DNA of 64,000 nucleotides from an uncultured Thermoleophilia bacterium. GTDB taxonomy: Bacteria > Actinomycetota > Thermoleophilia > Miltoncostaeales > Miltoncostaeaceae. Every line of letters begins with the position of its first letter. Position 1 is the first letter of the stretch. The stretch lies in assembly GCA_963770865.1 (NCBI GenBank), contig CAVYRD010000002.1, forward strand, positions 79,030-143,029, read 5' to 3'. Positions 9,830-55,692 of the stretch are shown piece after piece. Position numbers and translations under genes: made by a program. A model generated the notes under the pieces. It was not told the DNA's origin and ran no database searches. It worked only from the letters and a program-made list of their open reading frames with translations.

Positions 9830-12553
9830 ATGACGACGGTGGACGTCGAGCTGCGCGACGGATCGACGGTGCGGGTGCGCCCGGTGAGGCCGGACGACCT
9901 GCAGGCACTGACCGCGCTCCTGCGCGACCTGTCCCCCGACGCACGGCGCTACCGCTTCTTCGGGCAGGTCGACCTGGAGGGCGCCGCGCGCGCGATGGCC
10001 GTGGGCGGGGGCCCGGAGGACCACGCGCTCGTGGCGCTGACCGGCGTGCCGGAGCGGATCATCGGCCACGCCCAGTACCTGCGCGACCCGCGCTCGCGCG
10101 TGGCCGAGGTGGCCTTCACGGTGGCCGACGCGTTCCAGGGCCGCGGGCTCGGCACGCTGCTCCTGGCCCACCTCGCCGAGCACGCCCACGCGGCGGGGGT
10201 GGAGGAGCTCGACGCCGAGGTGATGGCCGACAACCGCCGCATGATCGACATGTTCCGCGGCAGCGGCTTCCCCGTCATCCTGCGCCGCGAGCACGGGACG
10301 GCCTTCGTGCGCTTCCCGGCGTCGCTCGGCCCGACGGCCACGGCGGCCTTCGAGGCGCGCCAGCGCACGGCCGCCGCGGCGATGGTGCGGCGCATCCTGG
10401 CCCCGGGGTCGGTGGCGGTGATCGGCGCCTCGCGCTCGCGCGGCACCGTGGGCGGCGAGGTGCTGCACCACCTGCGCGAGGGCGGCTACCCGGGCGTCAT
10501 CCACCCCGTCAACAGCGCGGCCGACGTGGTGCAGGGGATGCCTGCGCTGAGGCGCGTCGAGGACCTGCCCGAGGGCGTCGACCTGGCCGTCATCGCGGTG
10601 CCGGTGGCCGGCGTGCTGGACGCCGCGCGGGCCTGCGGCGCGCGGGGGGTGGGCGCGCTCGTCGTGCTCTCGGCCGGCTTCGCGGAGGTCGGCGAGGCCG
10701 GTGCGGCGATCCAGAGCGACCTGCTCGGGGTGTGCCGCGCCACGGGCATGCGCCTGGTCGGGCCGAACTGCCTCGGCGTGATCAGCACGTCGCCCGAGGC
10801 GCCGCTGAACGCCACCTTCGCGAGCGACATGCCGCCGCGGGGCACCATCGGAATGCTCTCCCAGAGCGGGGGGCTCGGCATCGCGCTGCTCGAGCAGGCG
10901 CGCGAGCTCGGCATCGGACTGTCGTCGTTCGTGTCCGTCGGCAACAAGGCCGACGTCTCGGGCAACGACCTGCTGCGCTACTGGGAGGACGACCCGGCCA
11001 CCCGGCTGGTGATGCTCTACCTCGAGTCGTTCGGCAACCCGCGCACCTTCGCCCGGGTGGCCCGGCGGCTGTCGCGATCCAAGCCCGTGGTGGCCGTCAA
11101 GAGCGGACGCGGCCGGGCGGGCGCGCGCGCCGCCAGCTCGCACACCGGGGCGCTCGTGTCCGGATCGGACGCGGCGGTTAACGCGCTCTTCCGCCAGTCC
11201 GGCGTGATCCGGGCGACCACGATGAGCGAGCAGTTCGCCGTGGCCAAGCTCCTGTCGGGCCAGCCGCTGCCCCCTGGGCGCCGGGTGGCGATCCTGACCA
11301 ACGTCGGAGGGCCGGCGATCCTCTGCGCCGACGCCTGCGAGGCCGGCGGCCTGGACGTGGTGGAGCTGCCGTCGGCCCTGCGCGAGCGGCTGCGCGCCGT
11401 CGCCGCGCCCGAGGCGTCGGTCGGCAACCCGGTTGACCTGCTCGCCGCCGCGAGCGCCGAGGAGTTCGGCCGGGCGCTCGAGGAGCTGGTGTCGGGCGAC
11501 GCCGTGGACGCCGTGATCGTGATCTACATCCAGCCGGGCCTCGGCAGTATGGGCGGGGAGGTGGCGGCCGAGGTGCGGGCCGTCGCGGAGCGCCTGCGGC
11601 CCCGCATCCCGGTCCTAGCGGTGCTCATGTCCGCCTCGGACCGGGAGGAGGCGCTCGCATCGGCCGGCCCGGGGGCGCCGCCGGTGTACGCCTACCCCGA
11701 GGAGGCGGCGCTGGCCCTCGCGCGCGTGTCGCGCTACGCCGAGTGGCGGTCGCACCCGCCCGGCATGGTGCCCGAGCTCCCCGGCACCCGGCCGGAGCAC
11801 GCCGCCACCCTGCTGTCGGCCGCCACCCTCGCGGGGTCGGAGTGGCTCACCGCGCAGGAGATCGCCGCGCTCTTCGCCTGCTACGGCCTGCCGCTCGTCG
11901 AGACGCGGCGGGCGGGCGACCCGGCCGAGGCCGGGGCCGCGGCGGGCGCGATCGGCGGCCCGGTGGCGCTGAAGGCGGTGGCGCCGGGCCTGGTCCACAA
12001 GTCGGACGTGGGCGCCGTGCGCCTCGGCCTGGAGGGGGAGGCGGCCGTGACCGCCGCCGCGCGGGCGATGTCGCAGAGCCTCGCGGACCTCGGCCATCGC
12101 GTGGAGGGGTTCCTGGTGCAGCCGATGGTCGCGGGCGGCGTGGAGATGCTCGTGGGCAGCAGCACCGACCCGCGGTTCGGCCCGGTCGTCGCCTGCGGGA
12201 TGGGCGGCACCGGGGCGGAGGTGCTCCGCGACGTCGCGGTGCGCCTGACGCCTCTCACCGACCTCGCCGCCCACATGATGCTCCGCGAGCTCCGGATGCT
12301 GCCGCTGCTCGAGGGCTACCGCGGCGCGCCCGCGTGCGACATCGGGGCGATCGAGGAGCTGGTGCTGCGCGTGGCGGCGATGGTCCATGCGCATCCGCAG
12401 ATCATGGAGCTCGACTGCAACCCGGTCTCGGTCACCCCGGAGCGGATCGTGATCCTGGACGCCCGCGTGCGCGTGGCCGCCGCCCCGGACCCGGTGCCCT
12501 GGCCCTCGCTCGGCGCCGCGCCACCGGTCGAGTGGGCGGCGGGCGCCTCGTGA
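9830..12553 (+). CDS. GNAT + NDP-forming acyl-CoA synthetase-like protein lysine acetyltransferase (Pat/Pka type)
   Basis: N-terminal GNAT (FQGRGLG), CoA-binding VAVIGAS/GPNCLG, SHTGAL, C-terminal ATP-grasp HKSDVGAV. Confidence 0.9.
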   Translation: MTTVDVELRDGSTVRVRPVRPDDLQALTALLRDLSPDARRYRFFGQVDLEGAARAMAVGGGPEDHALVALTGVPERIIGHAQYLRDPRSRVAEVAFTVADAFQGRGLGTLLLAHLAEHAHAAGVEELDAEVMADNRRMIDMFRGSGFPVILRREHGTAFVRFPASLGPTATAAFEARQRTAAAAMVRRILAPGSVAVIGASRSRGTVGGEVLHHLREGGYPGVIHPVNSAADVVQGMPALRRVEDLPEGVDLAVIAVPVAGVLDAARACGARGVGALVVLSAGFAEVGEAGAAIQSDLLGVCRATGMRLVGPNCLGVISTSPEAPLNATFASDMPPRGTIGMLSQSGGLGIALLEQARELGIGLSSFVSVGNKADVSGNDLLRYWEDDPATRLVMLYLESFGNPRTFARVARRLSRSKPVVAVKSGRGRAGARAASSHTGALVSGSDAAVNALFRQSGVIRATTMSEQFAVAKLLSGQPLPPGRRVAILTNVGGPAILCADACEAGGLDVVELPSALRERLRAVAAPEASVGNPVDLLAAASAEEFGRALEELVSGDAVDAVIVIYIQPGLGSMGGEVAAEVRAVAERLRPRIPVLAVLMSASDREEALASAGPGAPPVYAYPEEAALALARVSRYAEWRSHPPGMVPELPGTRPEHAATLLSAATLAGSEWLTAQEIAALFACYGLPLVETRRAGDPAEAGAAAGAIGGPVALKAVAPGLVHKSDVGAVRLGLEGEAAVTAAARAMSQSLADLGHRVEGFLVQPMVAGGVEMLVGSSTDPRFGPVVACGMGGTGAEVLRDVAVRLTPLTDLAAHMMLRELRMLPLLEGYRGAPACDIGAIEELVLRVAAMVHAHPQIMELDCNPVSVTPERIVILDARVRVAAAPDPVPWPSLGAAPPVEWAAGAS

Positions 12554-54772: not shown

Positions 54773-55692
54773 GCACCTTCCTCGCGCCCCCGCGCTGGAG
54801 CCCCGAGCGCCTGGAGGCCGACGTCGCGGCCGCAGTCGAGAGCTTCCGCCACGAGCGCGAGCGCGAGCCGCTCGAGCAGTACCCCGCGCACGTGGACGAG
54901 TGTCTCGGGACGATGGAGGAGCTGATCGAGCTCACGGTCGACCTCTCCCAGCTGCGCGAGCGCGCGCTCGAGGTCGTCACCGACCCGCGCCTGCTGGAGG
55001 CGCTGCGCTTCGTCGCCGGGCCCTTCATCTCGGTCGATGACCTGCGGGTCATCGCGCGCACCACCCTCGCGCCGACCCGGCTGCGCGCCGACCCGGGCGC
55101 AGCCGAGCGCATCGTCGAGAGCGTGCTGGCCGGCATCGACGAGCGCCGCTTCGCGTGGGTGCGCGACGGGCGCGAGCCCGACGAGGCCGAGCGTCAGGCC
55201 GCGGTGCTCGCGTCGGCCACCCTGATGGCCACCGAGCGCATGCGCACCCTGCGCCGCAACGAGGCCAAGCAGACCCAGGAGGGCGCCGTCGCCGAGGCGC
55301 TGATCGCCGCCGGCTTCACGCGCGTCGATCGCCCGCGCGCCATACGCACCCTCGAGGACGCCCCCGCGCCGGGCGAGTTCTGCGACGAGGTCGACTTCGG
55401 CGGGCGCAAGGCGGATCTTGTCGTCGGCCTCTGGGACCGGCGTCGGATGCCGCTCGAATGCAAGGTCTCCAACTCGATGACCAACTCGTTCAAGCGCGTC
55501 AACAACGACGCCGCGGTGAAGGCGGTCGGCTGGCTACGCGCATTCGGCGAGGATCAGGTCGTCCCCGCGGCGGTGCTCTCGGGGGTGTTCAAGCCCGCGA
55601 GCCTGGAGAGCGCCCAGGCCCGCGGGCTCACGGTCTTCTGGGCGCACCACCTGGACGAGCTCGTCGAGTGGATCGGCCGCACGCGGGCCTGA
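54769..55692 (+). CDS. XamI-family type II restriction endonuclease
   Basis: RKADLVV...ECKVSNS.TNS.KR.NNDAAVKA (PD-(D/E)xK core); GTGA-coupled to the MTase. Confidence 0.8.
   Translation: MSTFLAPPRWSPERLEADVAAAVESFRHEREREPLEQYPAHVDECLGTMEELIELTVDLSQLRERALEVVTDPRLLEALRFVAGPFISVDDLRVIARTTLAPTRLRADPGAAERIVESVLAGIDERRFAWVRDGREPDEAERQAAVLASATLMATERMRTLRRNEAKQTQEGAVAEALIAAGFTRVDRPRAIRTLEDAPAPGEFCDEVDFGGRKADLVVGLWDRRRMPLECKVSNSMTNSFKRVNNDAAVKAVGWLRAFGEDQVVPAAVLSGVFKPASLESAQARGLTVFWAHHLDELVEWIGRTRA

Follow-up and report, generated by a model that had tools for sequence, protein, structure and literature searches.

XamI recognises GTCGAC, and M.SalI makes N6-methyladenine (m6A), although specificity can vary among members of one endonuclease family. 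In R10.4.1 nanopore assemblies, C2T and G2A errors at modified motifs dominate the residual errors, and the Hammerhead approach has turned them into a method for de novo motif discovery (PMC11610603). The error excess of native DNA is concentrated at methylation motifs, is not seen in amplified DNA and can exceed 50% of the reads (bioRxiv 10.64898/2026.01.14.699587), and ambiguities between the two purines and between the two pyrimidines have also been described (PMC11610573). Both subjects meet in a stretch of 64,000 nucleotides (the window, G000:C2:79030-143029) from G000, the genome under study, which is an error-rich metagenome-assembled genome, probably of long-read type, from a bacterium that the names of homologues assign to the Thermoleophilia (3.82 Mb, 74% G+C, 23 contigs, marker completeness 80%, contamination 4.5%). 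The window encodes a restriction-modification (R-M) system of the XamI family. It also carries motif-specific errors at GTCGAC, some of them nonsynonymous; short-read contigs lack them at most of the positions compared, and a closed relative does not show them. Evidence from relatives, from contigs of short-read type, from statistics over the whole genome and from a control within the genus makes it very likely that these are GTCGAC-specific consensus errors, with GTCGm6AC produced by the R-M system of the window as their likely cause.

The preliminary description of the window, made from its letters, had proposed a XamI-type R-M system, and this reading holds, with an RE_XamI match and an adjoining NPPY methyltransferase, both intact (Table 1). 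The endonuclease, the product of 54769-55689, matches PF09572 (RE_XamI) over model positions 2-256 of 256 (E=8.6e-37, 127.4 bits for a cut-off of 25). The Pfam matches of the methyltransferase (product of 53141-54769) are weak (MTS, Methyltransf_25 and Eco57I, all below cut-offs); JGI names one member of its 90% cluster adenine-specific DNA-methyltransferase, and its orthologue on the ENA contig L013 carries PF22837 (M_Eco57I_C). This contig, which shares about 92% identity and, across 34.5-54.2 kb, synteny with the window, the methyltransferase locus included, has a XamI-family R-M system at the same place. The likeness to XamI/SalI-type systems lies in the RE_XamI endonuclease adjoining an NPPY adenine methyltransferase and in the error motif, which points to GTCGAC. 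The locus differs from them in that the RE_XamI gene is found in 19 of 19 genomes of this uncultured Thermoleophilia genus instead of sporadically, and in that the good genomes do not avoid GTCGAC, the specificity for this site being suggested by the error motif. No C5 methyltransferase and no type I enzyme were found in G000, as far as its 80% completeness allows.

Table 1. Genes of the R-M system and motif variants discussed in the text (window positions).
Feature	Positions	Strand	State	Basis or comparison
DNA methyltransferase, 543 aa, NPPY motif (adenine-N6 type)	53141..54772	+	intact	translation
XamI-family restriction endonuclease, 307 aa	54769..55692	+	intact, overlaps methyltransferase stop codon	Pfam PF09572
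GTTAAC (Val-Asn), Pat-like gene	11177..11182	+	probably GTCGAC, both halves miscalled	
GTCGAAC, alpha/beta-hydrolase remnant (17864-18670)	17993..17999	+	probably genuine sequence rather than error	
GTCAAC (GVNPGRV), hydrolase remnant	18178..18183	+	possibly GTCGAC originally; suggestive only	
GTTCGAC, ClC channel gene (about 19300-20606)	20155..20161	+	one T extra, gene split	versus GTCGAC
GTCGAAC (coding strand GTTCGAC), MaoC dehydratase gene (35817-36274)	36049..36055	-	one base extra	
GTCAAC (Val-Asn)	39921..39926	+		GTCGAC in L013
GTTCAAC, cytochrome c gene (about 44183-45380)	44825..44831	+	extra T plus G>A	versus GTCGAC
GTTGAC	45279..45284	+		GTCGAC in L013 and Logan contig L014
GTTGAC	47237..47242	+		GTCGAC in L013
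GTTGAC	48531..48536	+		GTCGAC in L013

Four genes had been described as each split by one extra base within a variant of GTCGAC. All four seven-base words lie at the positions given for them, and the reading frames shift at each of the four. Relatives or metagenome contigs support the removal of one base in the ClC, MaoC and cytochrome c genes, but at the hydrolase site (17993) the proposal fails. In contigs from other samples, 88-99% identical to the window, the extra base is absent at 20157, 36053 and 44826, as is the transition at 45279; at the 17993 site a contig agrees with the window. Part of this evidence comes from a comparison of window positions 16100-36099 with contigs from other public metagenomes, those cited being among the best supported. 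For the ClC gene, the upstream part of which matches Pfam Voltage_CLC, a 266-nt wetland contig (X3) is without base 20157 and reads GTCGAC; a 151-nt soil contig (X1), which differs by one mismatch, likewise shows a single gap in 20106-20257, and the frame parse described below puts the +1 event at 20162. The MaoC gene, read through one base, encodes 152 residues including MRLWVDHAPPVAGG; this product (P0001) is up to 93% identical to intact homologues of 149 residues, with 95-98% of the length matched, and its junction MRLWVDHAPP recurs in six of the seven aligned homologues. The MaoC site is GTCGAC in four of four related contigs (L013; L015 and L016 from JGI; L017 from Logan). The cytochrome c read-through protein (P0002) matches homologues of 376-379 residues, and the two closest (91% and 88% identity) have EVGVDPAAPDL at the point where the window has Val-Asn. 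L013 and L014 read GGGGGTCGACCC at this site, so the GTTCAAC of the window is GTCGAC with an extra T and a G>A change. A metagenome-contig search with the C-terminal part of the cytochrome found no relative. The sites at 36049 and 44825 thus read GTCGAC in all five related ENA, JGI and Logan contigs. The window holds three well-supported frameshifts, all at the GTCGAC motif, and most likely these, together with many of its odd codons, are consensus errors. This leaves the genes for ClC, MaoC and cytochrome c intact, as had been proposed, and all alignable relatives or short-read contigs indeed show plain GTCGAC and a whole gene.

In another assembly the ClC orthologue (G005:C1, near 161528-162413; L002:1950-1970) reads GAGTTGACC, which contains TTG, a rare Leu codon; short-read contigs from the population of the window show GAGTCGACG (Ser) there. 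The C>T artefact has probably affected a second assembly here, one with a raised GTCAAC/GTCGAC ratio (0.72).

Substitutions at the motif follow the same pattern. Of ten sites that are GTCGAC in L013, six bear the signature in the window, four of them as C3>T or G4>A and two as insertions: one site each reads GTCGAAC, GTTCAAC and GTCAAC, three read GTTGAC (45279, 47237 and 48531), two are unchanged and two carry ordinary differences. Changes of CG to TG or CA between L013 and the window have a background of 2.7% and reach 4 of 8 in the GT..AC context. Of the recurrent GTT-GAC codon pairs that had been singled out as suspect, these same three are GTCGAC in L013, and the pairs at 47444 and 50254 correspond there to GTTAAC and GTGGAC. 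Of the Val-Asn pairs suspected to stand for Val-Asp, the one in the Pat-like gene (11177) is supported, being GTCGAC (Val-Asp) in G001, with Asp or Glu in five of five relatives. The one in the hydrolase (18178) is suggestive only, its homologues reading GTTGAC in G011 and GTCAAC in G008, two few-contig assemblies that are error-prone themselves and have a raised variant ratio. The C26 candidate at 15914 is not supported, since relatives, which are only 44-49% identical, have Gly or Ala at this position.

The whole genome was then parsed with a Viterbi model allowing one- and two-base skips within genes, using codon log-odds trained on long open reading frames with high G+C at third codon positions. 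Because many calls near stop codons were parser artefacts, only events at least 90 nt from both gene ends were kept, which left 558 internal +1 (extra-base) and 212 missing-base events in G000. When all 7-mers within 20 nt on either side of the predicted +1 events were scanned without prior choice, the two most enriched were GTTCAAC/GTTGAAC (19 of 227 occurrences, 14-fold, binomial P 4e-16) and GTCGAAC/GTTCGAC (45 of 944, 8-fold, binomial P 1e-25). No enrichment near +1 events was found for GTCGAC with G1 or C3 doubled. The statement of the preliminary description that every +1 frameshift sits in a GTCGAC variant is not borne out genome-wide, since the motif accounts for 64 of the 558 internal events (about 11%). 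The other 494 show nothing but a mild preference for GC-rich words, and a second, general insertion-error process must therefore be assumed. With the same parser, G000 has 146 +1 and 55.5 missing-base events per Mb, against 15 and 40 in a 400-kb stretch of the closed relative G016, and 357 and 85 in a 400-kb stretch of G003 (G003:C1:1-400000). The roughly tenfold excess of extra-base frameshifts in G000 is real. The missing-base rate is near the control level; the general error process is dominated by insertions.

Two other motifs were considered and rejected. A HincII-like GTYRAC specificity is not reflected at frameshifts, GTCAAAC/GTTTGAC showing no enrichment (1 of 30); GTCGAC with errors arising independently in its half-sites fits better, because sites written GTTGAAC are GTCGAC in relatives. 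A second motif, GATC, came into question because contig C14 has a Dam-class gene; G>A changes show no excess ahead of ATC, however, and CGATCG has only a mild enrichment around the remaining +1 events.

Codon usage in G000 shows the substitutions on a genome-wide scale. Before GAC, 5.4% of Val codons are GTT, a share that is only 0.7% before GAG, and the AAC/GAC ratio is 0.76 after GTC, compared with 0.25 after GTG and 0.16-0.21 after CTC, GAC or ATC; this excess implies that about 700 Asp codons are written as Asn. In the frame xxG-TCG-ACx, TTG (Ser>Leu) occurs 60 times where about 15-20 are expected, and synonymous TCA 38 times where about 4 are expected, the two excesses being equal. Nonsynonymous changes on such a scale indicate errors rather than evolution. 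Codon counts for the related contexts GTCGAG, CTCGAC, ATCGAC and GACGAC show no comparable excess. Stops of the form GT-TGA-C, as errors would make them, number 15 against 10 expected, a comparison of low power because GTCGAC is rare in that frame (nine cases). In a screen of all NNC>NNT codon-pair contexts, GTC-GAC ranks only fifth, so that the codon test is convincing only together with the G016 control. The top four contexts are all T-ending codons before C-starting ones; T-ending codons are favoured there (CTT-CGC, CTT-CCG, GCT-CCG and others) at 5-8 times expectation, in what looks like a natural context bias.

The control had to be sought within the genus. As the RE_XamI gene is present in all 19 genomes, presence could not be compared with absence, and types of assembly were compared instead. 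For (GTCAAC+GTTGAC)/GTCGAC, six assemblies of at least 80 contigs and the complete-looking G016 and G001 give ratios of 0.26-0.43, and 11 of 11 few-contig assemblies give 0.62-1.26, a group stated as having at most 20 contigs in which G000 (23 contigs; ratio 0.91) is counted. Completeness is below 80% in seven of these 11, which was taken as a sign of many false frameshifts. Before GAC, Val is written GTT in 0.4% and GTC in 72% of cases in G016, in 5.4% and 45.8% in G000, and in 6.6% and 37.5% in G003, and the GTC-AAC/GTC-GAC ratio rises in the same order from 0.32 through 0.76 to 1.18. The signature thus tracks the quality or type of assembly, and not biology or phylogeny. The good genomes contain about 1000-1190 GTCGAC per Mb (about 1160 in G016), some 3.7 times the expectation from base composition. 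G016, with the same R-M system, this high density and no GTT-GAC excess, therefore indicates neither site avoidance nor a mutational hot spot in the genus. Codon counts and genus ratios together indicate that G000 gives about 30% of its true GTCGAC sites as GTCAAC or GTTGAC.

The most likely mechanism is that N6-methyladenine at GTCGm6AC disturbs the basecalling of native DNA. The NPPY methyltransferase in operon with the XamI-family endonuclease (53141-55692) would place this mark; as GTCGAC has one adenine per strand, an NPPY enzyme acting there must modify A5. The errors observed agree with this. Some 30% of sites are miswritten as GTCAAC or GTTGAC, that is, as G4>A, G4 being the 5' neighbour of A5, or as C3>T when the error falls on the other strand. 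A few per cent are written GTCGAAC or GTTCGAC, with doubling of A5, the half-site's only adenine, or of its paired T2. Independent errors in the two half-sites give GTTCAAC/GTTGAAC and GTTAAC. The change of GTCGAC to GTTGAC or GTCAAC matches the C2T/G2A pattern of PMC11610603. More generally, the case resembles the nanopore modification errors of PMC11610603, PMC11610573 and bioRxiv 10.64898/2026.01.14.699587 in its short motif, in the dominance of C>T and G>A changes that reach the consensus, and in an error pattern that reveals a motif which can be matched to a methyltransferase gene. It differs in having been read from a finished public assembly without reads, with a presumed platform and presumed methylation, and in its adenine-doubling insertions, which these papers do not describe.

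Several observations weigh against the reading of GTCGAC errors caused by methylation. Two other DNA methyltransferase genes are present in the genome, one of family PF01555 (contig C7) and one of the D12 class (C14). No more than about 11% of the surplus of +1 frameshifts is covered by the motif. In the cited papers the emphasis is on substitutions, and insertions or frameshifts are not mentioned in PMC11610573. The few-contig group was taken to be long-read from contig number and completeness only. A 151-nt peat contig (X4) is identical to the window over 17972-18122 and so spans the hydrolase GTCGAAC. The comparison with L013, finally, also works in reverse: L013 carries the same substitution signature at other sites, again 4 of 8, and is therefore not an error-free reference. 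Several sites are GTCAAC in one of these two assemblies and GTTGAC or GTTAAC in the other, as at 39888, the neighbour of 39921, which is GTCAAC in the window and GTTGAC in L013.

Such reciprocal differences are also what a shared hot spot would produce, and they lead to the view that the changes are real mutations, arising from a GTCGAC hot spot or from restriction-driven loss of sites, with the frameshifted genes as true pseudogenes. The peat contig confirms the hydrolase GTCGAAC, and genuinely decayed genes, the hydrolase and a glucose-6-phosphate dehydrogenase remnant, do occur in the window. Yet the tested sites are GTCGAC in short-read-type contigs, selection would have removed some 700 Asp>Asn changes, as well as Ser>Leu changes that equal the synonymous ones in frequency, and the signature follows assembly type rather than phylogeny. 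G016 speaks against it as well, combining the same R-M system with about 1160 GTCGAC per Mb, 72% GTC before GAC and no GTT-GAC excess, and no C5 methyltransferase that could create a deamination hot spot was found in the 80%-complete genome. Real mutation is thus a very improbable account. Less credible still, to the point of being nearly negligible, is the idea that the extra bases are real and that programmed +1 frameshifting, at sites of the GTTC type, carries translation past them. Apart from these bases the genes for ClC, MaoC and cytochrome c are intact and conserved, which favours it; the extra base is nevertheless absent in relatives, the GAAC form lies on the coding strand in 22 events and on the template strand in 45, hence on either strand, and the substitutions at the same motif are left unexplained. 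The most serious alternative, itself unlikely, keeps the errors and drops the modification: k-mers around GTCGAC would simply be mishandled in very GC-rich DNA. A shared A2G/G2A bias does persist in amplified DNA, although the excess of native DNA lies at methylation motifs and is minimal elsewhere (bioRxiv 10.64898/2026.01.14.699587). The 494 motif-free insertions show that the assembly is error-prone in general, and methylation at GTCGAC is deduced rather than measured. What such a context bias leaves unexplained is that the single outstanding error motif is the recognition sequence of the endonuclease family's namesake, that the doubled base is the half-site's only adenine and the substituted base its 5' neighbour, and that GTCGAG, CTCGAC, ATCGAC and GACGAC show no excess. 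GTCGAC-specific errors caused by methylation are accordingly preferred. The preliminary description stands in part, both in its observations (the seven-base words and frame changes) and in its interpretation (motif-specific errors, a XamI-family system and three intact genes); it fails on the hydrolase site, on C26 and on the word "every".

The hydrolase itself is probably a genuine remnant of a decayed gene, in which the frameshift at 17993 is not confirmed as an error. Compared with a 464-residue homologue in G008 (L020), it is without about 150 core residues and keeps two N-terminal membrane helices and the C-terminal half. The peat-contig match over 17972-18122 also spans a second suspected site in it, at 18108. 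The remaining internal frameshift calls in the window are at 18108 and 18604, both in this remnant, at 48978 in the glucose-6-phosphate dehydrogenase remnant, and at 4279. The last is a missing-base frameshift predicted by the parser 266 nt before the stop of a minus-strand gene (4013-5599). Only a short remnant of glucose-6-phosphate dehydrogenase is found in the window (48851-49149, minus strand); L013 has a 490-residue gene at the equivalent place (14629-16101), some 1.2 kb being absent from the window, through either a real deletion or an assembly collapse. At 42274 the window has an intergenic extra A relative to L013 (GCGAACC versus GCGACC), which doubles the A in a CGAC context short of the full GTCGAC. 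The CheB gene of L013 (3350-4789; window equivalent near 37866) is called in two pieces, and at GTCACCGCG this contig contains an additional C relative to the window; L013 thus has indel errors of its own and is not a clean reference in this respect either.

For curation, ClC, MaoC and cytochrome c of the window should count as intact. In G000, GTCGAC is probably miswritten at roughly a thousand sites, and about 700 Val-Asn pairs probably stand for Val-Asp. False frameshifts at the motif affect at least 64 genes of G000, and some 430 more, false positives being allowed for, are hit by motif-free insertions. The same signature occurs in ten other few-contig assemblies among the genus representatives, so that completeness estimates are lowered and protein databases polluted with Asp-to-Asn and Ser-to-Leu variants. 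This kind of artefact has already been published, and the value of the finding lies in curation; it raises no new biological question. Its by-product is a testable specificity, GTCGm6AC, for the R-M system of an uncultured genus. Tentatively, the XamI-family system might be fixed, vertically kept and domesticated, possibly with a regulatory epigenetic role, instead of belonging to a mobile defence island. On this reading, the motif targeted by an enzyme of an uncultured lineage would have been obtained from assembly errors alone.

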